Assembly: GCA_030641665.1 (NCBI GenBank)
Contig: DAOWHA010000053.1
Span: forward strand, 1 to 40,238
Length of the DNA: 40,238 nucleotides
Direction of reading: 5' to 3'
From: a bacterium
Lineage (GTDB): Bacteria; Patescibacteriota; Patescibacteriia; JAACEG01
The position numbers and the translations under genes are program-made. Of this stretch, positions 4,220 through 24,206 are shown one piece after another; positions within the stretch are counted from its first letter, which is position 1, and each line of letters begins with the position of its first letter. A model generated the notes under the pieces. That model did not search any database. It saw only the letters and a program-made list of their open reading frames with translations, and was not told where the DNA came from.

Positions 4220-6727
4220 ATGGATTCTTTAATTCAACAAGCGATTTTTTTAGTTTTCGCGTTTATCGGGGTAATTCTTTTTTTCGCGCTGGCTTTTCTG
4301 CTTGTAAAACATTATTTACAAGCTGGCGATCATCTCCCAGTTTTGTTTAGAAAAGTTGTCCTATTAGTTATGGTGCCGAGAGAAGCGGCAAGCAAAGACG
4401 CCAGTGAAAAAGGGATTACTCTGCAATTAATTCAGGAAAAAATTGGAATAATGGAGACAATTTACGCTAACACAAGCGGATTAAGGGCGAAACGAAGTTT
4501 GAAATCTTTGCTTTTGGGCAGAAACGACCACCTTTCTTTTGAGATTGTAATTAAAAACGGAACTATATCTTTTTATATAGCCGCGCCGAAATACCTTAAA
4601 CAATATATAATTCAGCAGGTTCAGGCGCAATATTCAGACGCGCATATTGAAGAAGTGGAAGATTATAATATTTTTTCGCCGCAGGGATTTATTGACGGCG
4701 TTTATCTGAAATTTACAAAAAATTTTTTGTTTCCGATAAAAACCTATAAAAATCTGCAAGCAGATCCTTTAAACGCAGTTATAAACACTTTAAGCAAAAT
4801 GGAAGATGATGACGGCGCGGCAATTCAGTTCACAATAAGACCGACAAAAGGCGATTGGCGAAGTTGGGGAACTAAGACGGCGGCTGAGGTAAGGCGCGGG
4901 AAAAGCTTAAACGAAGCGGTAAAAGCAAAAGGAGATTTCAAGTCAGAAATTGCCGGCGGCTGGGGAGGCGATTTAAAAAATTCCATTTTTGGCGGGCATA
5001 AAAAAGACGAAATGAGCATTCGCCAAAATGAGCCGTATCGCCCATCTCAGATGGAAGAAGAGTCAGCTAAAAGCATAGAAGAAAAAGTGTCTAAAGCAGG
5101 GCTAGAAGTTAATATCAGAATTATAGTTTCGGCTGACAAAAAAGAACAGGTAAAAATGTATCTTGATAACATCGTCAACAGTTTCGGTCAGTATAATATT
5201 TATCAATACGGAAACAGCTTTCAGGTTTCGCGCGCGTTTACGCAAAAAAAGCTGATTGACGATTTTATCTACCGCAATTTTAACGACAAGAAAAAAATAA
5301 TCGTGAATTCCGAGGAGATGGCATCGCTTTTTCATTTTCCGATCAGCGGCGCAACTCAGATGCCGAATATCAACTGGCTCTCTTCCAAAGAAGCTCCAGC
5401 GCCTGCGGATATGCCGAAAGAAGGAATAATTTTGGGAAAAAATATCTATCGCGACATAGAAACAGAAGCAAGAATAGCCCCGGATGACCGCTCGCGGCAT
5501 ATTTATGTTATTGGAAAATCTGGAACAGGGAAATCTGTTTTGCTGGCGAATATGGCGCGCAGCGATATTTTAAACGGTGACGGCGTCGCTGTAATTGATC
5601 CGCACGGCGACTTGATTGAAGATGTTATGTCCGCTATTCCGCCTGAGCGCGCCGAAGATGTCATTTATTTTAATCCGTCTGATGTTGACAGGCCGATGGG
5701 GCTTAATTTGCTGGAATATGATAAAAAATATCCAGAGCAGAAAACATTTGTCATCAATGAGATGATAAATATTTTTGACAAACTGTATAATCTGAAAAAT
5801 ACCGGCGGACCGATGTTTGAGCAGTATATGCGAAATTCTATGCTTTTGATAATGGACGATCCTGAAAGCGGATCAACCTTGATGGAAATTTCCAAAGTGC
5901 TGGTTGATCCTGATTTTAGAAAATACAAATTAAGCAAGACCACTAATCCAGTCGTGCGCGACTTCTGGCAGAAAGAAGCGGAAAAGGCGGGCGGGGACGC
6001 GGCTCTGGCGAATATGGTTCCGTATATTACGAGCAAACTTAACGCTTTTGTCGCCAATGATATGATGAGGCCGATTATCGGGCAGCAGAACAGCGCTTTT
6101 AATTTCAGGAAGATTATGGACGAAAAAAAGATTTTACTGGTGAATTTAAGCAAAGGAAGAATCGGTGATTTTAATTCTTATCTGCTCGGAATGGTTATCG
6201 TAGGAAAAATTTTAATGGCGTCGCTTTCGCGGACAGATATTCCGAAAGAAGAGCGAAAGGATTTTTATTTCTATCTTGACGAATTCCAGAATTTTATCAC
6301 AGAGAGCATCTCCGTGATTTTATCAGAAGCAAGAAAGTATCGTTTAAATTTAACGATCGCGCATCAATATATCGGGCAGTTGGTTCGGGATCAGGACGCT
6401 TCTATCCGCAACGCTGTTTTTGGAAACATCGGAACAATGGTTTCATTTAAAGTCGGAGCGGAAGACGCGGAATTTTTAGTCAAGGAATTCGCGCCTGTTT
6501 TTGACGCTTATGATTTAGTTAATATTGATAAATACAACGCCTATGTAAAACTGATTATAGATAATCAGCCGACCAGAGCGTTTAACATAAAGACGACGCC
6601 CTTGAAAGAATACGATTATAATAATTCGGAAAAAATTAAAAACTTGTCGCGTCTGAAATACGGAAGAGATAAATCAGTCATAGAAGCGGAGATTTTGAAA
6701 AGAATGAAACTTTCGGCCAAAAGATAA
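4220..6727 (+). CDS. Membrane-anchored TraG/VirD4/HerA-like (DUF87) ATPase of the type widespread in CPR
   Basis: N-terminal TM; RHIYVIGKSGTGKS Walker A; IDPHGD; YLDEFQNF Walker B; LSEARKYRL; AHQYIGQL. Confidence 0.9.
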   Translation: MDSLIQQAIFLVFAFIGVILFFALAFLLVKHYLQAGDHLPVLFRKVVLLVMVPREAASKDASEKGITLQLIQEKIGIMETIYANTSGLRAKRSLKSLLLGRNDHLSFEIVIKNGTISFYIAAPKYLKQYIIQQVQAQYSDAHIEEVEDYNIFSPQGFIDGVYLKFTKNFLFPIKTYKNLQADPLNAVINTLSKMEDDDGAAIQFTIRPTKGDWRSWGTKTAAEVRRGKSLNEAVKAKGDFKSEIAGGWGGDLKNSIFGGHKKDEMSIRQNEPYRPSQMEEESAKSIEEKVSKAGLEVNIRIIVSADKKEQVKMYLDNIVNSFGQYNIYQYGNSFQVSRAFTQKKLIDDFIYRNFNDKKKIIVNSEEMASLFHFPISGATQMPNINWLSSKEAPAPADMPKEGIILGKNIYRDIETEARIAPDDRSRHIYVIGKSGTGKSVLLANMARSDILNGDGVAVIDPHGDLIEDVMSAIPPERAEDVIYFNPSDVDRPMGLNLLEYDKKYPEQKTFVINEMINIFDKLYNLKNTGGPMFEQYMRNSMLLIMDDPESGSTLMEISKVLVDPDFRKYKLSKTTNPVVRDFWQKEAEKAGGDAALANMVPYITSKLNAFVANDMMRPIIGQQNSAFNFRKIMDEKKILLVNLSKGRIGDFNSYLLGMVIVGKILMASLSRTDIPKEERKDFYFYLDEFQNFITESISVILSEARKYRLNLTIAHQYIGQLVRDQDASIRNAVFGNIGTMVSFKVGAEDAEFLVKEFAPVFDAYDLVNIDKYNAYVKLIIDNQPTRAFNIKTTPLKEYDYNNSEKIKNLSRLKYGRDKSVIEAEILKRMKLSAKR

Positions 6728-15426: not shown

Positions 15427-16161
15427 ATGAATAATAAAACAAAAAAGCGTATCTTGATGACAATTATAATTTTAGCATCAGCATGTATAATATTCACTGC
15501 CTTGTTTTTATTATTAAATATAAAAGATAAATTTATGCCAAATAATAAGACAAATTACGAGGCAAAAATAATAAAACTGCCAGATCCTAAGTACGACAGC
15601 GAAACCTCGGTTGAAGAAGCTTTATTAGGGAGAAGATCTGTTAGGCGCTATAGCGGAGAGCCGATAACTTTTTTTGAAGTATCGCAGCTTCTTTGGGCGG
15701 CGCAGGGAATTACGGACAAGGCAAGAGGATTTAGAACAACTCCATCCGCTGGAGCTCTTTATCCGCTTGAGGTTTATATTGTTGCGGGAAATATAAACGG
15801 TCTTCAAGACGGGGTTTATAAGTATGAGGTTCAAGAACATAAGCTGAGGAGAATTACAGAAGGAGATAAACGGGACGAATTATGCGATGCCGCTCTTCGC
15901 CAATCTTCAGTTAAAGACGCCGCGGCAATTATAGCGTTTTCCGCGGTTTATGAGCGGACAACTGGCAGATACGGAGAAAAAGGCGTAAGATACGCAAATA
16001 TGGAAGCCGGACATGCCGCTCAAAATGTTTATTTGCAAGCAGTCTCCCTTAATTTAGGAACAGTAGTGATCGGGGCTTTTGACAGTGAAGAAGTGAAAAA
16101 GATTTTGAATATGCCGGAAGAGGAAAACCCTTTATATCTAATGCCTGTCGGACGGAAATAA
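15427..16161 (+). CDS. SagB/ThcOx-family nitroreductase-fold protein with N-terminal TM anchor
   Basis: RRSVRRY, LLWAAQGIT, RTTPSAGALYPLEVY, MEAGHAAQNVYLQA, IGAFD. Confidence 0.92.
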   Translation: MNNKTKKRILMTIIILASACIIFTALFLLLNIKDKFMPNNKTNYEAKIIKLPDPKYDSETSVEEALLGRRSVRRYSGEPITFFEVSQLLWAAQGITDKARGFRTTPSAGALYPLEVYIVAGNINGLQDGVYKYEVQEHKLRRITEGDKRDELCDAALRQSSVKDAAAIIAFSAVYERTTGRYGEKGVRYANMEAGHAAQNVYLQAVSLNLGTVVIGAFDSEEVKKILNMPEEENPLYLMPVGRK

Positions 16162-16207
16162 GTTTAGCGCTGGAATACAAACTAATAAAATTGGCTCAGA
16201 ATGATAT

Positions 16208-16387
16208 TAGACTTGTTGCGTAATAACTTTTTACTGCAATTTCCATATTTTGATCAATTTTTCTAAAAATTTTAACGCCTATATATTTGTAGTGACGGGT
16301 TTCAAACCCGTCACTACGAAAAATTTTTAAAAAATTTGCCTCAAAATCTGAAAATTTCGTCGCAAAAGTTATTACGCAACAAGTCTA
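16208..16387. repeat. MITE-like 180-bp fold-back element (family B) with a central GTAG-type REP palindrome
   Basis: Perfect 24-bp terminal IR TAGACTTGTTGCGTAATAACTTTT; imperfectly pairing arms; core GTAGTGACGGGTTT-C-AAACCCGTCACTAC at 16289-16317. Confidence 0.88.
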
Positions 16388-16409
16388 TTAAAAAACTGTT
16401 TGGGTAAAG

Positions 16410-16438
16410 TTGATTTTCGGCGGCGGGAGTGGTAAAAT
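16410..16438 (+). promoter_or_regulatory. Sigma70 promoter upstream of the methylase stub / PLD-wH operon
   Basis: TTGATT-N17-TAAAAT with an extended -10 TG. Confidence 0.5.
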
Positions 16439-16471
16439 GAAGATAAAAAAAATGATGTAAATTTAAAAATT

Positions 16472-16726
16472 ATGGCAGCAAAAAATAAAATTTTAAGCAA
16501 TATAAAAAACAAGCCTTATTTTACAAAGGACAATTTTGTTTTATATAAAAGCGATTGTTTAAAAATTTTAGAGCAGATCCCGGAGAATTCAATCGATATG
16601 ATTTTCGCGGATCCGCCTTATTTTTTGTCGTCAGGGACTTTTAGCTGCCAAAATGGAAAAATGGTGAGCGTTAAAAAAGCCGATTGGGATTTAAGCAATG
16701 GGTTGAAAAAAGATTTTGATTTTTAA
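16472..16726 (+). pseudogene. 5' stub of a DpnA (M2.DpnII)-like beta-class adenine DNA methyltransferase
   Basis: DCLKIL..IPENSIDMIFADPPYFLSSG....GKMVSVKKADWD matches my recollection of DpnA (DMIFADPPYFLSNGG...VVSVDKGDWD). It stops at 84 aa with no TRD or SAM-binding (DPFxG) motif. Confidence 0.85.
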
Positions 16727-16749
16727 TATAAAATATTAATAATTTAATT

Positions 16750-17502
16750 ATGCAAATAATAAAAACTCCGTGGGAAGATGTGTTTATAAAATTAGTTAAA
16801 AATTCTAAAGAAAAAATTTATTTGTCTTCACCTTTTATAAAAGAAAATGTGGCTAAATTAATTTTGGACAATAAGCAAGATAATATTGATTGTAAAATTT
16901 TAACTAGGTTTACTTTACCAAACATTAGAGGAGGAGGGCTGGATTTATCTGCCATAAAATATTTTCAAAATGCAAATTTTTCTCAAAAAAATATATCTAA
17001 TTTGCATGCAAAAATTTTTATTTTTGATAACATGGCGATAATCACATCTTCAAATCTTACAAATGGCGGTTTAAGAAATAATTTAGAATATGGGGTTTTA
17101 CTAGATAATGTTAGGGAAATTGAAAAAGACTTTTTAAATTATTATAATGATGAAAATTATAATTTTATACAAGATAAACATATAAATAAAGTAAATGAAT
17201 TTTTAAAAAGTTTACCTCCTATTCATAAAAAGTTAAAATTTAAAAGTCTCGATGATAATCAGATATTTTCAGAAGATATAAAGTTGATAAAAAACAAACT
17301 TACAAAAGGGAATTTAAGAGTTTTTGAAAGTATAGAAAAGATTGGTAAAGAAATTTTTATATCCAAAGATATTTATAAATTCAAAGATAAGTTTTTCGGA
17401 AAAACACCAGAAAATACAATTAGAAGAAATTTACAAGAATTACGAGATATTGGACTATTAGAATTTACAGAACGCGGTAAATACAAAAAATTATGGAATT
17501 AA
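16750..17502 (+). CDS. PLD-family nuclease fused to a DpnI-like C-terminal winged helix (candidate m6A-dependent type IV restriction enzyme)
   Basis: LSSPFI and LHAKIFIFD...ITSSNLT...NLEYG (single HKD motif); C-terminal TPENTIRRNLQELRDIGLLEFTERGKY resembles the DpnI wH (IRQQLQ.LRD.G..EF..RG.Y). Confidence 0.82.
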   Translation: MQIIKTPWEDVFIKLVKNSKEKIYLSSPFIKENVAKLILDNKQDNIDCKILTRFTLPNIRGGGLDLSAIKYFQNANFSQKNISNLHAKIFIFDNMAIITSSNLTNGGLRNNLEYGVLLDNVREIEKDFLNYYNDENYNFIQDKHINKVNEFLKSLPPIHKKLKFKSLDDNQIFSEDIKLIKNKLTKGNLRVFESIEKIGKEIFISKDIYKFKDKFFGKTPENTIRRNLQELRDIGLLEFTERGKYKKLWN

Positions 17503-17675
17503 AAAAATTTATTGAAAAATTAGAAAAAATAGCAAAAAAACATGGGAACGACGCAAAAGTTGTAATGGCTGATAATATTCCAGTAGTTAATCCTATTTTT
17601 GTCAAAAAAAATTATTTTAATAAGAGGGTTGTAGTTATAACAGACGAAGAATCAGAGGAAGAACAAAGAGATTGA
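17493..17675 (+). CDS. Small hypothetical protein (60 aa)
   Basis: Overlaps the PLD-wH stop; its 5' end is duplicated at 20191-20234. Confidence 0.6.
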   Translation: MELKKFIEKLEKIAKKHGNDAKVVMADNIPVVNPIFVKKNYFNKRVVVITDEESEEEQRD

Positions 17676-17829
17676 AATAGGATACATTTATATTTTGGAT
17701 GATTGGTTTAAAGATTCTAAATACAAAGATGTTTTAGATTATGTCATTTTAATAAACGGCTGTTCCTATTATTTTAATTATTTGCCACTGCAAAAAATAG
17801 GATTGCCAGTGCCTGAAAATAAAAATTAA
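17671..17829 (+). pseudogene. 3' stub (52 codons) of a probable restriction endonuclease gene
   Basis: Start-less frame IEIGYIYILDDWFKDSKYKDVLDYVILINGCSYYFNYLPLQKIGLPVPENKN*. It resembles the C-terminus of a PD-(D/E)xK-type family that I recall next to Dam/DpnA-type methylases; not verified by search. Confidence 0.6.
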
Positions 17830-17842
17830 CAAAATATTTTTT

Positions 17843-19399
17843 ATGATAAGAAAAGAGGAATACAAAGATTTAATAGAATCTTTGGATGTAGGTTCATCTG
17901 TAGCAGAGCAAGATAAATTTTTAGAACGGGCTAAAGTTGAAACGCCCATTTTTAGTGATTTTATTCTTGATAAAGTAGATCTTGTTTTAGGAGCTAAGGG
18001 ATCTGGTAAAACTTCTATTTTTAGATTAACACACGCAACTAAAGAGATCTTATTGGATAAATCTAATTTGCATATAATTACTGGGGTCGAACCTCAAGGA
18101 GATACAGTTTTTGAATTATATAAAAAAGATTTTTCAACATTCACAGAGTCTGATTTTGAAAATTTTTGGAAAATTTATTTTATAAATTTAATTTACAACG
18201 ATTTTATTTGCCAAGAATCATTCAAGGAGCGACTGAAAAATTATAAGTCAGATATAAATAATTTTATAAGAGAAAGTGTAGCAATAGGAATACCACAGAT
18301 TAACCAGCCGACTGATCTTAAATCGATAGTTCAAAAAATTATAAATGTAATCAATAAAAGGAGGATTAAAAAGGTTAAGAGCGGGATTGTAATTGATCCC
18401 AAACAGGGATCTTTTTTGCCTAATATTGAAATAGAGCTTGAAGATAATAAGTATACCAAAGAAAAAGACAGGTTGCCCATCTATGTAACAAAGTTGGGAA
18501 ATATTCTAGAAAGTATGCTAAAAAAAATGAAATTTAGGATATGGATTTTACTTGATCGTTTAGATATAGTATTCGAACATGGTAGTCAATTAGAATTCCT
18601 TGCGTTAAGAGGTTTATTAAGAGCATATGAGAGTTTTCAAGTTAGCAAAGGAGACCCGTTTAAATATTTAAGAATTAAAGTATTTCTACGAAATGATATT
18701 TTGGAATTTCTTTTAACTCCAGATAAATTTAAAAGAATTTCAAACTATAGGCAGCCGAAAAATTTACCAGCGTTAACACATATAACATCTAGGGCAACCA
18801 AAACACCTTTAGCTTGGACAAAAGAAGAAATACAACAACTTATGTTGAAAAGATTATTTCTATCAACTCCATTGAGAACTTATTATAAAACGAGTATGGA
18901 TGATTTAAATAATGAAATAAATAGGAATGAGATGTGGAGTAAATTGTTTGGCGACAAAATTGAACAAGGAGACAAAAAATCAGATTCATTATCTTGGATA
19001 CATACTAGAATAAGTGATACTTATCAAGCAACACCTAGATCAGCCATTGATTTTTTGGATGGTGTGATACACGAACAGTCTAGATTATTTAATTTAAATA
19101 ATGTAGATCAAGAAAGATTATTTTCTTCACAAGCTGTTAAACACGGAATAATAATTGCCTCAAAAGAAAAATATACAAAGGAAACAAAAAATGAATATCC
19201 TAAAATAATACAACATATCGAAAAATTTAAAGGCGAGAGTGCTAGGTTTAAAATAAATGATTTAAAAAAAATATTTGGTAATAATTATGTAGAAATTATT
19301 ACTGAATTAGAAAAAATAGGATTACTTAGTAAAATTGGTGATGCATATAAGGTTTCATTTATATTTCGCGCTGCGTTAGGAGTTCATCCGCAATTCTAA
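17843..19399 (+). CDS. P-loop ATPase, Sll1717/FunZ-like family (candidate defence protein)
   Basis: G.SVAEQD N-terminus, LVLGAKGSGKT Walker A, WILLDRLD Walker B, KVFLRNDI, TPR. Confidence 0.75.
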   Translation: MIRKEEYKDLIESLDVGSSVAEQDKFLERAKVETPIFSDFILDKVDLVLGAKGSGKTSIFRLTHATKEILLDKSNLHIITGVEPQGDTVFELYKKDFSTFTESDFENFWKIYFINLIYNDFICQESFKERLKNYKSDINNFIRESVAIGIPQINQPTDLKSIVQKIINVINKRRIKKVKSGIVIDPKQGSFLPNIEIELEDNKYTKEKDRLPIYVTKLGNILESMLKKMKFRIWILLDRLDIVFEHGSQLEFLALRGLLRAYESFQVSKGDPFKYLRIKVFLRNDILEFLLTPDKFKRISNYRQPKNLPALTHITSRATKTPLAWTKEEIQQLMLKRLFLSTPLRTYYKTSMDDLNNEINRNEMWSKLFGDKIEQGDKKSDSLSWIHTRISDTYQATPRSAIDFLDGVIHEQSRLFNLNNVDQERLFSSQAVKHGIIIASKEKYTKETKNEYPKIIQHIEKFKGESARFKINDLKKIFGNNYVEIITELEKIGLLSKIGDAYKVSFIFRAALGVHPQF

Positions 19400-19428
19400 A
19401 TTAATTTGTATTAAACAAAAAATTATAG

Positions 19429-19448
19429 TGTAAATTAAATCATTTACA
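19429..19448. promoter_or_regulatory. Putative operator upstream of the small HTH gene
   Basis: TGTAAAT-N6-ATTTACA inverted repeat about 20 nt before ATG 19470. Confidence 0.4.
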
Positions 19449-19469
19449 TATAAATTAAAGCATGATACA

Positions 19470-19667
19470 ATGAATATATTAGAAGAACAAATAAAAAAAG
19501 AAATGGCGCGAAAAAAATTAGCTCCTGTCGATATTTATAAACCATTAGGAATAAATAGAGTTAATTTTTATAGAGCCATTAAAACTTCTAATCTTGAAAA
19601 TAAATCTTTAAAAAAGATTTTAAATTTTCTTGGATTATTCATAAAAATTAATTTAAAAAAATTATGA
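19470..19667 (+). CDS. Small XRE/Cro-like helix-turn-helix protein
   Basis: 65 aa; DIYKPLGINRVNFYRAIK...SLKKILNFLG is HTH-like; ATGA overlap with the next gene. Confidence 0.65.
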   Translation: MNILEEQIKKEMARKKLAPVDIYKPLGINRVNFYRAIKTSNLENKSLKKILNFLGLFIKINLKKL

Positions 19668-19957
19668 CAAAAAACAAAAAGTTTTATAAAAAATTATATT
19701 GTTCTAATAATTGCAATATAAGAGACGATATGATGCCAAAAATGATAACTTACGGGACAAAAACATGGGCTCACTATTTTGTTGAGATTGGAAAAAAAGA
19801 TTTTAAAAAATGTGATATGGAATTATTAGAGAATGTTGAGTATATAGAATTTGATAATAAAAAAGAAATGTTTAAATATTGGGATAAATTAGCAGATGAA
19901 AAAAAGATTGATTGGAATATAGATTTTGATTATCCGGAAATATTAAGGTTTAAATAA
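19664..19957 (+). CDS. Hypothetical protein translationally coupled to the HTH gene
   Basis: 97-aa ORF; ATGA overlap; CxxxC near the N-terminus. Confidence 0.6.
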   Translation: MTKNKKFYKKLYCSNNCNIRDDMMPKMITYGTKTWAHYFVEIGKKDFKKCDMELLENVEYIEFDNKKEMFKYWDKLADEKKIDWNIDFDYPEILRFK

Positions 19958-20034
19958 AAAAGACTGCGATAAAAAAGTTAATGTGGTTTATCTTAAATAA
20001 CGAGTAGAGTCAATTTTTTTTATACTAAACACAT

Positions 20035-20180
20035 TGTCATTCCGAACTTGTTTCGGAATCTGTCATGAATTATCGCTAAATTATGATTAGGATGGATAAA
20101 TTTTGAATTTATACTTTGTTAATCTTAATCATAATACTGAGATAAGTAATGACAGACCCTGAAATAAATTCAGGGTGACA
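20035..20180. repeat. Fold-back palindromic element family C (REP doublet)
   Basis: Left unit TGTCATTCCGAACTTGTTTCGGAATCTGTCAT; right unit ATGACAGACCCTGAAATAAATTCAGGGTGACA. Each unit has its own hairpin, and the interior (ATTATGATTAGGAT / ATCTTAATCATAAT) also pairs. Confidence 0.85.
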
Positions 20181-20190
20181 TATTTTTTAT

Positions 20191-20272
20191 TTAAAAAAAT
20201 TTAATCAAAAATTAGAGAAAATAGCAAATAAACAAAATGAAAGAGCTTTTGAAAACTTATTTTGGGCATAAT
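20191..20272 (+). repeat. Stacked duplicated gene 5' ends (60-aa ORF fragment followed by recQ fragment)
   Basis: 20191-20234 matches 17499-17542 at 40/44 nt; 20237-20265 matches recQ 21996-22024 at 28/29 nt. Confidence 0.85.
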
Positions 20273-20422
20273 ATTTTGTGTTTTGTGAAACAGTAAAATT
20301 ATTTAATTTTTTATTTTTAAGTTAAAATCGGCATAAAATAGGATGTGATTAGGCATATTTGTGTTTTTTTAAAACAAGAGAATGCATTGAAAATTGCTTT
20401 ATATTAGCCAAAAAATTAGTGT

Positions 20423-20473
20423 TTGACAAGACCTGTATAGTGTAATATACTACAAACATATAATTGTAGTATA
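20423..20473 (+). promoter_or_regulatory. Sigma70 promoter with overlapping operator for the AAA14-DUF4143 gene
   Basis: TTGACA (20423-28)-N17-TATACT (20446-51); IR TATACTACAA-N8-TTGTAGTATA (20446-20473). Confidence 0.7.
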
Positions 20474-20484
20474 ATGAAATATAT

Positions 20485-21909
20485 ATGAACCAAAATTTAA
20501 TACAATATCTGCAAAAGCAAATTTTAACCACAGACGACCGATTAAAGCATTTTACTCACAGCCTGAACGGAGAAAAATATCCAAATCGTTTTTTGTATGT
20601 AAAACTGCAAAAATATATAAATGATTTTCTGGATAAAAAATCATTAAATAGAATGGTAATTATTCCTGGATTTAGAGGCGTTGGAAAGACAACTCTTATG
20701 GCTCAAGTTTGCTCGGAATTTAAAAAGAAAGATTTTCAAGTTTTATTTTTGTCTATAGAGGATTTAAGAAATTATTTCGAAGCCAATATTAATGAAATAG
20801 TATCGGCTTATGAAGAAATTATTGGTGAAAATTTAGAAAGCGTTAAAAAACCAATGTTAGTATTTTTTGATGAAGTCCAAGCAGACCCAAAATGGGCTAT
20901 TGCGCTAAAAGCGCTATTTGAAAGAACTCGTAATATTTTTCTATGCTCCACAGGATCATCGGCAATTATTTTACAATCAACGCCAAACATTGCTCGTCGA
21001 GCAATATTTGAGCCGATGCCGCCGATGTGTTTTGGCGAGTATCAAATGATAAAAAATAAAAATTATCCAATTTCAGGACTAAAAAGTGAAATTAGGAAAA
21101 CTATTTATTTCTCAGATTCAGCTGAGGATGTTTACAATAAACTATATAACTTAAGAAGTAAAATTAACAGTTATTGGTCAAAAGTAAATAGAAATGATAT
21201 AAAAAAATATTTGTCTTATGGGACTTTCCCGTTTACTTTAATAATGCCAGATGAAATCTCTATTTATAACACTATATCTTTATTGCTTGATAAAATCATT
21301 AAACAAGATATGCCAAATTTGGGCAGTTTTGATCAAAATACGCTTGGAGCAGTAAAAAGAATTTTGTTTGCGATAGCTGAAAATGATGTGACAAGCCTGA
21401 GTATTTTAGCGAATAAATTTAGCATCAATCGTTTGACTATTGCCAATATTTTTGATGTCTTAGAAAAGGCGGAACTTTTGATAAAAATTCCGCCTCATGG
21501 TTCAAATATGACGATTGCTAATAAGCCCAATAAATATTTATTTATGAGTCCGGCAATCAGAATGTCATTTTTTTATTTTACAGGAAATGAATATACTTAT
21601 TTGACTAGGCAAGGCAAGTTACTGGAAGACTCTATCGGCTCACATCTTTATAGGGAATTTATTTTAAGAGGCGACGGCATTATTCGCTATGATAGCGCAA
21701 AAGGAGGGGCTGATTTTATTTTGCAAATAGGGAATACTAAAAAAATAATTATTGAAGCTGGACTTGGCAAGAAAGATAAAAAACAGGTTATAAACACGAT
21801 GAATAAAATTAAAGCAGATTACGGGGTTATTTTTTCCAATACTGAATTAAAATTTAATTCTATGTTAAATATTATTTCAGTCCCGTTAGATTATTATTTT
21901 TTAATGTAA
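20485..21909 (+). CDS. AAA_14 ATPase with C-terminal DUF4143 (wHTH/nuclease-like) domain
   Basis: GFRGVGKTT, FFDEVQ, STGSS, YLSYGTFP, KYLFMSP, GKLLEDSI, ADFIL..IEA. Confidence 0.88.
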   Translation: MNQNLIQYLQKQILTTDDRLKHFTHSLNGEKYPNRFLYVKLQKYINDFLDKKSLNRMVIIPGFRGVGKTTLMAQVCSEFKKKDFQVLFLSIEDLRNYFEANINEIVSAYEEIIGENLESVKKPMLVFFDEVQADPKWAIALKALFERTRNIFLCSTGSSAIILQSTPNIARRAIFEPMPPMCFGEYQMIKNKNYPISGLKSEIRKTIYFSDSAEDVYNKLYNLRSKINSYWSKVNRNDIKKYLSYGTFPFTLIMPDEISIYNTISLLLDKIIKQDMPNLGSFDQNTLGAVKRILFAIAENDVTSLSILANKFSINRLTIANIFDVLEKAELLIKIPPHGSNMTIANKPNKYLFMSPAIRMSFFYFTGNEYTYLTRQGKLLEDSIGSHLYREFILRGDGIIRYDSAKGGADFILQIGNTKKIIIEAGLGKKDKKQVINTMNKIKADYGVIFSNTELKFNSMLNIISVPLDYYFLM

Positions 21910-21995
21910 CAGACCTGTTGAGTAATAATTTAACAGATTAAAAATTATATAGGGATTAACTATGCGATAATCCTAATAAATGCGCGTAAATTTAT

Positions 21996-24206
21996 ATGAA
22001 AGAGATTTTGAAAACTTATTTTGGATATGACAGCTTTAGACCGCTACAGGAAGAGATTATCAATAATGTTCTGCAAGGCAATGACACATTCGCGCTGATG
22101 CCAACTGGCGGCGGGAAGTCGCTTTGCTTCCAGCTGCCAGCCTTAAAATTTAGCGGGATAACGCTTGTTGTCTCGCCGCTTATCGCACTAATGAAAGATC
22201 AAGTGGACGCCTTAAAAACAAACGGAATTTCAGCTGAATTTATCAATTCATCGCTCACGCCAACGGAAATTTTGCAAATTCAAAAAAAAGCCGCTGACGG
22301 CAAAATCAAAATTCTTTATGTCGCGCCAGAGCGGCTGGCACTGGACAGTTTTCAGGAATTTTTACAATCGGTTAGCGTAAAATTAATCGCAATTGACGAA
22401 GCGCACTGCATTTCCGAATGGGGGCATGATTTTCGCCCAGATTACCGCGCGCTTAAACTTTTAAAAAAGCAGTTTTCAAAAGTTCCAATTATCGCGCTCA
22501 CGGCAACCGCTACCCCGAAAGTGCAAAAGGATATTGTAAATCAGTTATCATTAGGCAGCCCAAAAATATTTATATCCAGCTTTGATAGGAAAAATTTGAC
22601 GATGCGCGTAGTTGAAAAACAGAACACTTTTGAAAAACTGCTTTCGTTAGTTGAAAAATACAAAAACGAGCCGTCAATCATTTATTGCTTTTCCAGAAAA
22701 GAGACAGAAGAGATTGCGGCAAGATTGAGAGAAGAGGGCTTTGCCGCCTTGCCATATCACGCTGGGCTTAACAGCAAAACGCGGAAACATAATCAAGAAC
22801 TGTTTATTAAAGATGAAGCGCAAATTATAGTCGCCACAATCGCTTTTGGAATGGGAATTGATAAGCCCGATGTCCGCTTAATTGTCCACTACTCATTTCC
22901 AAAAACAATTGAAGGATATTACCAGGAAATCGGACGAGCCGGGCGAGACGGACTTCCGAGCGAATGCGTCCTGTTTTATTCTTACGGAGACGCGAGAAAG
23001 CACGAGTATTTTATTAATCAAATACAGGATGCTGTTGAGCAGGAAAAACGCAGGAAAAAATTATATCAAATAATCCAATATTGCGAAACAGCGGAGTGCC
23101 GAAGAAAATATATTTTAAGATATTTTGGAGAGGAATATTCTTCCGCAAAAAGCGGGAATACAAATGGATGCGGGGCATGCGACACCTGCTTAACTTCGAG
23201 GAAGTTGTTTAACGCGACAGAGATCGCGCAAAAAGTTCTTTCATGCGTTATCCGCGTTAGTTCTGTTGGTGGCGCATATAATGGCGCAAGAGGATTTGGG
23301 AAAAATTATATTGCCGATGTTTTATTAGGAAAAAACGCTCAAAAAATTATCAATAATAAGCATAATACACTTTCGGTTTTCGGAATTGTTAAAGATTTTA
23401 CAAAGGACGAAATTAAACGCGTCATTAAATCGCTTGTCGCTTTTAATTTATTGCGAGTGAGCGCAGGGGAATATCCAACTCTTTCAATTACAAAAAAAGG
23501 GTTTAATTTTTTAAAACAGAAAGAATTATTAGAGCTGCCAGATGCGCGAGCGGATTTTGCAAGCGAAGACAGAAGCGCTTTGAAACAAAAGGAGCGATAC
23601 GATATTAGCCTGTTTGAAAAATTAAGAATATTAAGAAAACAGATTGCGGACAAAAACAGCGTTCCGCCATTTATGATTTTCAGCGATGCGGCCTTACAGG
23701 AAATGGCGCGCTATTTTCCAATAGACGAAGACAGTTTTTCAAGAATTGAAGGCGTTGGAAGCAAAAAATTAAAAGACTTTTCAAAAGCATTTTTGTCTGT
23801 TATTAGCGAGCATATAAAAGAAAATAATATTCAGCCAATTAAAGTACCGACAATTAAAATACCGAACCGCTGGCAAAAAAGCCGTGTCACAGGAGGAAAA
23901 TACAATTCAGAACTTTCTGAAAGATATGCCCAAACAAAAGAGATGATTCTAAAAAAATTGCCAATATCAGAGATTGCCGCTAAGCATAAATTTAAAGAAG
24001 GGACTATTATAGTACATATTGAAAAGCTGATTTTACTGGGCGAAGATATTGATATTTTATATTTAAAGCCGCCTTCCGAAAGATTTGAAAAAATAAAAGC
24101 GGCTTTTGAAAAATGCGGCGATGAAAAGTTAAAACCAGTTTTTGATTTTTTTAAAGAAAAATATTCTTACGACGAAATTCGCCTTGTAAAGTTGTTTTTA
24201 AAATAG
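21996..24206 (+). CDS. recQ: ATP-dependent DNA helicase RecQ with RQC, HRDC and C-terminal HTH
   Basis: MPTGGGKS, DEAHCISEWGHDFRP, ATIAFGMGIDK, YYQEIGRAGRDG, Zn-binding CRR...CGACDTC, HRDC (PPFMIFSD). Confidence 0.97.
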   Translation: MKEILKTYFGYDSFRPLQEEIINNVLQGNDTFALMPTGGGKSLCFQLPALKFSGITLVVSPLIALMKDQVDALKTNGISAEFINSSLTPTEILQIQKKAADGKIKILYVAPERLALDSFQEFLQSVSVKLIAIDEAHCISEWGHDFRPDYRALKLLKKQFSKVPIIALTATATPKVQKDIVNQLSLGSPKIFISSFDRKNLTMRVVEKQNTFEKLLSLVEKYKNEPSIIYCFSRKETEEIAARLREEGFAALPYHAGLNSKTRKHNQELFIKDEAQIIVATIAFGMGIDKPDVRLIVHYSFPKTIEGYYQEIGRAGRDGLPSECVLFYSYGDARKHEYFINQIQDAVEQEKRRKKLYQIIQYCETAECRRKYILRYFGEEYSSAKSGNTNGCGACDTCLTSRKLFNATEIAQKVLSCVIRVSSVGGAYNGARGFGKNYIADVLLGKNAQKIINNKHNTLSVFGIVKDFTKDEIKRVIKSLVAFNLLRVSAGEYPTLSITKKGFNFLKQKELLELPDARADFASEDRSALKQKERYDISLFEKLRILRKQIADKNSVPPFMIFSDAALQEMARYFPIDEDSFSRIEGVGSKKLKDFSKAFLSVISEHIKENNIQPIKVPTIKIPNRWQKSRVTGGKYNSELSERYAQTKEMILKKLPISEIAAKHKFKEGTIIVHIEKLILLGEDIDILYLKPPSERFEKIKAAFEKCGDEKLKPVFDFFKEKYSYDEIRLVKLFLK

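Follow-up and report, generated by a model that had tools for sequence, protein, structure and literature searches.

In the 40,238-nucleotide contig DAOWHA010000053.1 (assembly GCA_030641665.1), which belongs to a bacterium of the lineage JAACEG01 in the Patescibacteriota, a locus at positions 16410–17829 carries a nuclease gene between two fragments of what was, judged from sequence, one restriction-modification (R-M) operon. The nuclease is referred to as PLD-wH, for the phospholipase D (PLD) domain and the DpnI-type winged helix (wH) of its product. The window analyzed is this entire contig, and the genome as a whole comprises 1.01 Mb in 77 contigs and is 93.8% complete. Its closest protein relatives bear the source names Parcubacteria or Patescibacteria. 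The favored reading, to which a probability of about 0.58 is assigned, is that a shell formed by the ends of a methylase and a restriction gene of the family termed R174 occupies a recombination hot spot flanked by a nitroreductase gene and recQ, that this emptied shell serves as a slot for nucleases, and that the PLD-wH, which would read methylated DNA, was swapped into it. A sequence-only reading of the same DNA had proposed a methyl-reading nuclease in the hollowed-out shell of a GATC-type operon; this core idea appears to hold, with a history different from the one suggested there.

All five pieces of the locus lie on the forward strand at the places given in the sequence-only reading. A promoter-like site (16410–16438; TTGATT-17-TAAAAT, with TG before the -10 element and 9 of 12 matches) is located upstream of a stub consisting of the first 84 codons and a stop of a beta-class N6-adenine DNA methylase (16472–16726). 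The stub is followed by the PLD-wH gene of 250 amino acids (aa; 16750–17502), identified by Pfam, a profile search of the PDB and a structural model, by a 60-aa open reading frame (ORF; 17493–17675) whose ATG overlaps the end of the nuclease gene, and by a start-less remnant comprising the last 52 codons and stop of R174 (17662–17829). The promoter claimed earlier is present as a site, but 15 such matches were found in the window against 12.1 ± 4.2 expected from shuffled sequence, so that the scan alone does not establish it. The promoter region shows homology from 16430 onward to the sequence upstream of an intact methylase (locus L091) and from 16386 onward to the same-genus relative G001.

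The 84-codon ORF is, by its sequence, a fragment of a methylase and not a methylase. It matches positions 2–84 of a 274-position methylase profile (E 1e-40), as well as NCBIfam CcrM (positions 6–59 of 350, E 1.6e-8) and PADLOC MTase_II (positions 2–71 of 260, E 9.3e-21). Motif IV (ADPPYF, residues 46–51) is present and aligns with full-length relatives, while the target-recognition region and the C-terminal S-adenosylmethionine motif (DPFxGSxTT) are missing, in agreement with the earlier description of a stub with DPPY and without the latter motif. Among 1833 longer relatives, the best 13 are 274–293 aa long and share 92–96% identity over all 84 stub residues. Full-length relatives continue as a beta-class methylase with DPFAGSSTTG near the C-terminus, motif IV preceding motif I; in this respect the earlier label "DpnA-like" is appropriate, and it applies in no further sense. 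The continuation of the methylase was not found in the window or elsewhere in the genome at its 93.8% completeness, and a split gene with the missing part encoded at a distance was rejected for this reason. The exact-sequence cluster of the stub contains three members only.

The parental operon was sought among 80 metagenome loci fetched using one full-length methylase; an ORF follows the methylase in 75 of them, and the contig ends in the other 5. The gene directly downstream encodes a MutH-family protein of 206–223 aa (Pfam MutH E 3e-10) at 33 of the 75 loci, R174, a protein of 174–175 aa with a PDD...EIK motif, at 13, and a DpnII-family protein at 7, with DpnII one gene further on in 2 more (in L126 with Pfam E 3.7e-90); the followers at the remaining 22 loci form small groups or are singletons. 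The window remnant corresponds to the C-terminus of R174. Its frame is open over 17641–17826 (62 codons, stop at 17827–17829) and contains no ATG, the first TTG being at 17695; its homologous portion (17662–17817) aligns to positions 123–174 of the 175-position R174 profile (E 6e-26) and is 68–82% identical to the last ~50 residues of R174. The catalytic PDD...E-I-K region, at residues ~76–96 of intact members, is missing. A profile of the remnant piece retrieved 314 cluster representatives, of which the full-length ones (170–210 aa) match at their very C-terminus, confirming the proposal that the start-less 52-codon stub is the end of an endonuclease.

DNA homology to intact operons stops at 16723 in all aligned intact loci and resumes at about 17671–17682, and other genomes (L013, L012) resemble the nuclease gene from 16722–16736 onward. 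Because the tail of R174 corresponds to the remnant and the DNA homology breaks and resumes at these points, the two remnants are read as the ends of one methylase-R174 operon; its interior was replaced, which is the part of this that the sequence-only reading had supposed. The comparison set in advance, namely whether both stubs come from one operon, gave the same answer, since intact methylase-R174 operons start and end with these sequences. As a separate observation, many proteins of 47–130 aa (P0241–P0390) consist of an unrelated short leader and the last 45–80 residues of R174, with varied break points; beheaded R174 genes seem to be common.

The nature of the restriction gene differs from what had been assumed. 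Pfam DpnII (PF04556) matched neither the window remnant nor intact R174, whereas DpnII C-terminal remnants and complete genes were recognized in the positive controls L022 and L126, so that the description of this gene as DpnII-like was abandoned. Intact R174 gives only a weak Pfam match (PDDEXK_11, E 1.3e-3) and a chance-level match among PDB sequences (E 1.6), and the remnant has no match in Pfam, NCBIfam, or PADLOC. The possibility that the remnant is the C-terminus of a methylase or of DpnII was likewise rejected. The MutH/Sau3AI-type and DpnII-type enzyme families act on GATC, and GATC R-M systems of the DpnII/MboI/LlaDCHI type carry a beta-class methylase. The parental methylase resembles these in being beta-class and in having MutH/Sau3AI-type or DpnII-type partners in 42 of the 80 loci, where the methylases are 74–100% identical to one another. 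On account of this pairing, the parental operon was most likely GATC-specific, and the earlier placement of the methylase in a GATC-type clade is upheld; R174, unlike the partners of the known systems, represents a third, uncharacterized family without a Pfam match above threshold or a match among PDB sequences.

In contrast to the fragments around it, the nuclease is intact, as had been claimed. The protein matches Pfam PLDc_2 (E 6.4e-12) and DpnI_C (E 3.8e-12), with PLDc also matched, and has a single HKD motif (H86, K88, D93, S100, N102) that is invariant in 54 of 54 aligned relatives; the winged helix occupies the C-terminus at about residues 175–248. The check suggested earlier, a comparison of this C-terminus with DpnI, was performed with a profile of 13 PLD-wH members against the PDB and returned the DpnI winged helix (4ESJ/4KYW, E 1.8e-11) in addition to Nuc (1BYR, E 4.1e-5). 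The PADLOC model of methyl-directed restriction endonucleases aligned over positions 190–255 of 256. An AlphaFold2 model from a 54-row alignment has a predicted local distance difference test (pLDDT) score of 92.7, and a Foldseek search with it retrieved SauUSI, Nuc, NucT, Zucchini, BfiI, and DpnI (4KYW). Nuc, NucT, BfiI, and the N-terminal domain of SauUSI share the fold and the HKD motif with PLD-wH and differ from it in their DNA-targeting modules, which are absent in Nuc, B3-like in BfiI, and composed of a helicase and a reader in SauUSI. A word-indexed search found 119 relatives, nearly all with the same two Pfam domains. Separately, among species-representative genomes, 271 loci encode a relative, and these come from many phyla, archaea among them; the window protein is 35–45% identical to most members of the family.

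The same architecture, a single-HKD PLD domain followed by a DpnI-type winged helix in ~250–270 aa, is described in the main text of PMC11037411 for Aba4572I and CbaI, which are proposed there to be N6-methyladenine-dependent type IV enzymes and whose family was counted at 27 proteins, compared with the 271 loci found here. According to the same text, members of this group, such as CbaI, cause Dam-dependent toxicity. The winged helix of the window protein aligns over residues ~178–254 of R.DpnI (4ESJ, 4KYW), including I-R-x-x-L-Q-x-L-R-D and the final G-K-Y-K-K-L, while the catalytic domain is PLD rather than the PD-(D/E)XK of R.DpnI. The available portion of PMC3424567 places E228, K229, R231, Q232, and Q235 of DpnI within 5 Å of the methyl groups; the window protein has N, T, R, R, and Q at these positions (HMMER alignment, with a three-residue offset of the PDB chain allowed for), three of the five being different. 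In the recognition region, a DpnI-like K-I-R-Q-Q-L-Q helix occurs in 30 of 54 aligned sequences and T/S-I-R-R-N-L-Q in the other 24, and it is the latter variant, as T-I-R-R-N-L-Q, that distinguishes the window protein from Aba4572I and CbaI. Dependence on methylation is likely, with less certainty about the exact sequence context.

The history of the locus can be approached through 60 relatives, among which an ~85-residue methylase fragment was found in G001, a member of the same genus, and, on short contigs, in G006 and G007, which belong to another genus of the family, and full-length copies were found in other families only. The left side of the locus is syntenic in G001, where genes for a HAD hydrolase, a membrane protein, and nitroreductase precede the stub, and the right side as well, with recQ and the next genes. 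After the identical break at codon 84, G001 carries a gene for a 241-aa protein, a 64-aa ORF, a MutH-like remnant (profile positions 59–211 of 214), two ORFs, and recQ. In G006 and G007 the order is stub, 241-aa gene, and a 52-aa homolog of the 60-aa ORF, followed in G007 by an R174 remnant longer than that of the window (profile positions 37–174). The 241-aa gene lies at L183 (contig C23 of G001) 4706–5431, L184 4861–5586, and L185 2047–2769 (reverse strand). PLD-wH was not found in any of the 60 relatives, G001, G006, and G007 included; in three of the relatives there were weak matches, which covered the winged helix only. Because the same 84-codon stub precedes a different nuclease in G001, G006, and G007, with synteny in G001, the gutted shell appears to be older than the PLD-wH cargo.

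The alternative cargo may be a modification-reader nuclease as well. Of its 7090 relatives, the best 120 share at least 64% identity, bear source names from several phyla, and carry precomputed Pfam annotations of NmeDI_C (120 of 120) and HARE-HTH (2). The ESM Atlas score to clusters of the HARE-HTH/NmeDI_C type is 0.98, and PADLOC REase_II matched. No match was obtained in the local Pfam copy or in 401 genomes sampled from the phylum, a sample that cannot show absence, and the literature search found no report on the function of this protein. An AlphaFold2 model from a three-row alignment reached a pLDDT of 29 and was set aside.

The window and G006 are homologous up to 16742 and again from 17493, so the exchanged piece is the nuclease ORF only. 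The small ORF at its right edge has homologs at L015 and L020 in addition to those in G006 and G007, and occurs both after PLD-wH and after the 241-aa nuclease; its ratio of nonsynonymous to synonymous divergence (dN/dS) is 0.25–0.35 among close copies, and it has no match in Pfam, NCBIfam, or PADLOC. The most likely course is a cassette-for-cassette swap between the end of the stub and the start of this ORF. Contigs from four metagenome runs of one study (X1–X4, of which X1 may be the source) were also aligned at 85% likeness, a level at which other organisms are included. In all four runs, there are contigs whose match to the window starts at 17493 and which carry different sequence to the left of that point; in three, a joint from 16562 to 16754 fuses stub codon 30 to the nuclease, as in proteins P0005–P0007; and in one, a joint from 17814 to 21989 places the shell directly beside recQ, skipping the rest of the island. 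With PLD-wH in the window and the 241-aa nuclease in syntenic G001, different cassettes occupy one site in related genomes. The nitroreductase-recQ site is a recombination hot spot, and the state seen in the window is one of several.

Similar arrangements recur in other lineages. A census covered the best 80 of the 271 PLD-wH loci and the window, 81 in total, by scanning six-frame translations with profiles of intact methylases, R174, DpnII, and MutH-like proteins and with two Dam-type stubs as additional queries. Fifteen loci were dropped, twelve with a partial protein and three (L012–L014) broken into frames under translation table 11, which probably use another genetic code. At 12 of the 66 loci with full-length PLD-wH, in many phyla, a truncated adenine-methylase head lies directly upstream on the same strand. 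Eight heads are Dam-type with KPFLKWAGGK, reaching Pfam positions 1–49 (L011), 1–44 (L028), 1–126 (L037), 1–71 (L047), 1–40 (L049), and 1–127 (L027) of 253, or being too short for Pfam (L021, L061). The other four are beta-class: the window, L022 (positions 1–55 of 221), L020 (where the head amounts to 24 residues in fusion with the nuclease), and L082. Four of the twelve (L020, L021, L061, L082) are identified by short matches alone. Truncation points vary, with stubs of ~25 to 155 residues, and at most loci with a stub the nuclease starts 0–40 nucleotides (nt) behind the stub stop (23 nt in the window).

No Dam-type head was found elsewhere within ~12 kb of each PLD-wH locus examined, and no Pfam adenine methylase was found in 86 upstream frames from 40 of 44 stub-less loci. 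Downstream remnants were identified as DpnII (positions 180–277 of 278) in L022 and as R174 in L015 and L027, and a MutH-like frame without a start codon is located downstream in L044, L065, and L066. On a PLD-wH tree built with a quick method, the stub loci are scattered and require at least 5 changes for Dam stubs (starred branches) and 4 for beta-class stubs, which indicates several independent events or many losses. Two further observations were made in this set. At L065 (5042–7595), and likewise in L044 and L066, a methylase of this clade is present at full length and is followed in turn by PLD-wH, a 77-aa ORF, and a MutH-like gene that is almost complete but start-less, which may be an early stage of replacement or a lineage whose nuclease tolerates the methylase. 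Downstream of PLD-wH at L040 (4316–4876), a beta-class methylase has lost an internal segment, so that the DPP of motif IV runs straight into profile position ~137, which is another way of disabling a methylase. A scan of viral contigs yielded three loci, two of which have a 43–45% identical relative beside a methylase in divergent orientation; no generalization is drawn from these.

Taken as a mechanism, the favored reading would run as follows. The promoter region, the first 84 codons of the methylase, and the last 52 codons of the endonuclease are all that is left of the operon, and in this bacterial family the shell would act as an expression slot for stand-alone nucleases with a modification-reading winged helix, filled by a nuclease of the HARE-HTH/NmeDI_C type in the sister genomes and by PLD-wH in the window, each followed by the same small 60-aa ORF. 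The most likely route of entry for PLD-wH is homologous recombination with crossovers on both sides, within the methylase stub and within the 60-aa ORF. Transcription would start from the old methylase promoter, the stub would be translated, and the nuclease would begin 23 nt after the stub stop. In single-HKD PLD enzymes such as Nuc and BfiI, it takes two copies to build an active site, and the PLD domain is accordingly expected to pair with a second copy. The winged helix would target DNA containing N6-methyladenine, probably Gm6ATC; since it would direct the enzyme to methylated DNA, the cell would attack invaders with Dam-type methylation instead of unmethylated ones. The flip of cutting polarity named in the sequence-only reading is retained in this conditional form, as are the GATC specificity, the dependence on methylation, the direction and order of the swaps, and the use of the promoter. 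The sequences themselves document the anatomy and the break points, the parental operon, the families to which the proteins belong, and a shell shared with an alternative cargo.

Several points weigh against this reading. An intact methylase-R174 pair at this chromosomal site was found in none of the 60 relatives searched; the nearest intact methylase copies lie in other families, and other intact operons lie on metagenome contigs without this synteny. The window protein keeps only R231 and Q235 among the five methyl-proximal residues of DpnI. GATC is mildly depleted in the genome (2213 sites, observed/expected 0.72), and three D12-type methylase ORFs of unassigned specificity are present besides the stub. 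According to the main text of PMC11037411, no PLD-wH enzyme has been purified and cutting in vitro has never been shown; Aba4572I, which adjoins a methylase, is toxic in Dam-minus cells, and more so than with Dam. A full-length methylase lies directly upstream of PLD-wH in L044, L065, and L066, which form one Bacteroidota-type clade, so that the incompatibility is not absolute or those enzymes differ. A strict rule is further contradicted by a full-length methylase downstream of PLD-wH in L029 and L031, with a helix-turn-helix (HTH) gene between, and by another methylase type downstream in four PLD-wH loci. The claim that the incoming gene is incompatible with GATC methylation fits the recurrent truncated heads. 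Finally, the stub is under strong purifying selection, which is not expected of a mere scar.

This last point leads to the alternative that survives best, tentative as it is, in which the stub, rather than being a scar, has been kept as a small gene that benefits the downstream nuclease through its product or through being translated. The four stubs of the window, G001, G006, and G007 have intact ORFs with the same end, so that the earlier term "scars" does not suit them; across 81 codons (Nei-Gojobori), synonymous divergence (dS) is 0.58–1.14, dN is 0.015–0.073, and dN/dS is 0.02–0.07 (0.02–0.05 for the window stub against the three sister stubs). These ratios fall below those of the flanking genes between the window and G001 (nitroreductase dS 0.33, dN/dS 0.21; recQ dS 0.48, dN/dS 0.11) while the R174 remnant, compared between the window and G007 (dN/dS 0.16), and the 60-aa ORF (0.25–0.35) are less extreme. 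The close spacing of stub stop and nuclease start in most stub-bearing loci also agrees with a maintained gene. On the other hand, stub lengths elsewhere range from ~25 to 155 residues and some relatives have only 24–30 codons fused to the nuclease, which suggests that no fixed peptide is required family-wide, and the comparison involves four sequences. Gene conversion from working methylases of the community could also mimic constraint: the summed contig depth in the four metagenome runs is 110–186 over the stub against 4–31 over the nuclease, by which the community holds many related methylase sequences. The low dN/dS of the stub would follow if the 84-residue product, or the act of translating it, has a use, or if working methylases overwrite the stubs again and again.

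A different alternative, considered unlikely, is that the lineage never possessed a working operon, and that head, nuclease, small ORF, and tail move as a unit into the nitroreductase-recQ hot spot, the remnants being hitch-hiking baggage or homology arms. This would account for the absence of an intact allele at the site in the 60 relatives, for the relic junction of the 60-aa ORF and recQ at 20182–20270 (described below), for the several alternative joints in community contigs, and for fused forms with 24–30 methylase codons in distant relatives. The downstream remnant is MutH-like in G001 and R174 in the window and G007, which points to the exchange of whole blocks with different right ends. 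However, the stub dS of 0.58 between the window and G001 is close to that of the flanks, and DNA homology is unbroken from the nitroreductase gene into the stub save for an inserted repeat element, a combination to be expected if the left part has been inherited vertically from the ancestor of the genus.

A broader proposal, doubtful as it stands, holds that N6-methyladenine-reading nucleases spread by converting GATC R-M operons and dam genes, the stub having become a maintained gene and the shell a reusable slot. Recombination anchored in the conserved 5' end of the methylase gene would swap, in a single step, the methylase body and in many cases the restriction-gene head as well, resolving a lethal conflict and giving the newcomer a ready promoter; the stub could then be, for example, a translated leader metering nuclease expression or a fragment interfering with incoming methylases of the same clade.

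It is very unlikely that PLD-wH is an ordinary methylation-blocked enzyme whose partner methylase decayed, leaving a nuclease that is silent or held harmless by another methylase. The full-length methylases beside PLD-wH, upstream in L044, L065, and L066 and downstream behind an HTH gene in L029 and L031, would agree with such an enzyme, as would the other adenine methylases of the genome and the behavior of Aba4572I (PMC11037411, main text). Yet at 12 of 66 loci the methylase is truncated while the nuclease is intact with invariant catalytic residues, a state that with a classical enzyme would be lethal or would soon cost the cell the nuclease; in addition, the winged helix is of the DpnI type, the toxicity of CbaI depends on Dam, and among more than 1000 wH fusions 87% lack a methylase in the nearest three genes, the latter two as stated in the main text of PMC11037411. 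The least probable account is the one-step replacement of the sequence-only reading, in which incoming PLD-wH DNA deleted the interior of a resident GATC operon in this cell and took over its promoter: the anatomy fits, and similarity of the cassette to L013 and L012 begins exactly at the left break (16722–16736), but the same codon-84 break precedes a different nuclease in three genomes of the family, and the longer right-hand remnant of G007 makes the window look like a later, more eroded derivative.

The locus under the favored reading is the left part of a variable region bordered by conserved genes, with G+C content lower than in the flanks from about 16.2 to 22 kb. The left neighbor of the stub is the nitroreductase gene (15427–16161, forward strand, by Pfam), and in G001, too, the gene immediately before the stub encodes this protein, at 87% identity; the right border is recQ (21996–24206, forward strand; Pfam DEAD, Helicase_C, RecQ_Zn_bind, RQC, and HRDC), syntenic with G001. 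The remainder of the island (17843–21909, all genes on the forward strand; annotated with Pfam, NCBIfam, and PADLOC) contains an Sll1717-family P-loop ATPase (17843–19399, NCBIfam E 2.7e-42), a small HTH ORF (19470–19667), a 97-aa ORF (19664–19957), and an AAA_14/DUF4143 P-loop ATPase (20485–21909, PADLOC candidate system PDC-S01, E 8.7e-28); this stretch, both ATPases included, is absent from G001. Upstream of the AAA_14 ATPase gene, also on the forward strand, the relic junction at 20182–20270 joins ~45 nt of the 5' end of the 60-aa ORF to ~36 nt of the 5' end of recQ; its recQ piece is closer to the recQ start of the relative than to that of the window itself, and it is a leftover from a previous state of the island. 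An element of ~186 nt (16205–16390), bounded by 27-nt inverted repeats and containing a terminator-like hairpin (16286–16320), separates the nitroreductase gene from the stub promoter. It is absent from G001, has a second two-armed copy at C22:30601–30767 and single arms on C16 and C46, and looks like a miniature inverted-repeat element.

Elsewhere in the genome, contig C49 encodes one complete beta-class methylase in a restriction cluster, and contig C59 a 327-aa D12-type ORF. Contig C41 (544–2352, reverse strand) carries a 602-aa ORF that combines a RadC/JAB domain (NCBIfam RadC E 4e-65) with a D12-type adenine methylase in one protein; the next gene, also D12-type, runs off the contig, scoring 84.7 bits against NCBIfam "dam" (cut-off 114.85) over its N-terminal half only. 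With respect to short palindromes, ACGT is nearly absent (46 sites in 1.01 Mb, observed/expected 0.04 under a Markov model), and GGCC (0.18), TCGA (0.19), and CTAG (0.31) are strongly avoided genome-wide, which suggests long restriction exposure at these sites.

The closest known precedent is the dpn locus of Streptococcus pneumoniae, where, according to the available portions of PMC3812788, PMC3573125, and PMC4471560, one site holds a methyl-dependent nuclease or a GATC R-M system in the form of the DpnI, DpnII, or DpnIII cassette, with swaps occurring in shared flanks. The window locus differs in that pieces of the old genes were left as flanks, in that the host belongs to the Patescibacteria (candidate phyla radiation), and in that the alternative cargos are two putative modification-reader nucleases, with no intact R-M allele in the 60 relatives. 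The PLD-wH family and the idea of a polarity swap were already known, whereas the preserved remnants recurring at 12 of 66 loci, the reuse of one shell by nucleases that replace each other, and the constrained methylase head are new. The words remnant, truncated, pseudogene, and cassette are absent from the main text of PMC11037411, its supplements lying outside the search, and a literature search, which did not extend to subscription journals and supplements, found no report of methylase stubs flanking winged-helix nucleases.

These observations also provide material for experiments: R174, which should be a GATC enzyme judging from its methylase partners; the HARE-HTH/NmeDI_C nuclease in the same slot, which may read a modification too; and the constrained methylase fragment. 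Gene callers, and neighborhood surveys restricted to annotated methylases, overlook such stubs, and the history of "stand-alone" type IV enzymes is under-reported as a consequence. PLD-wH is the one class of winged-helix nucleases whose methyl dependence has been drawn only from toxicity in E. coli, and a beheaded GATC-type methylase beside it, here and in 11 other lineages, constitutes independent natural evidence of mutual exclusion between these nucleases and GATC methylation. The locus shows a possible route by which a cell may pass from cutting unmethylated to cutting methylated DNA, a transition documented earlier mainly for the pneumococcal dpn locus.

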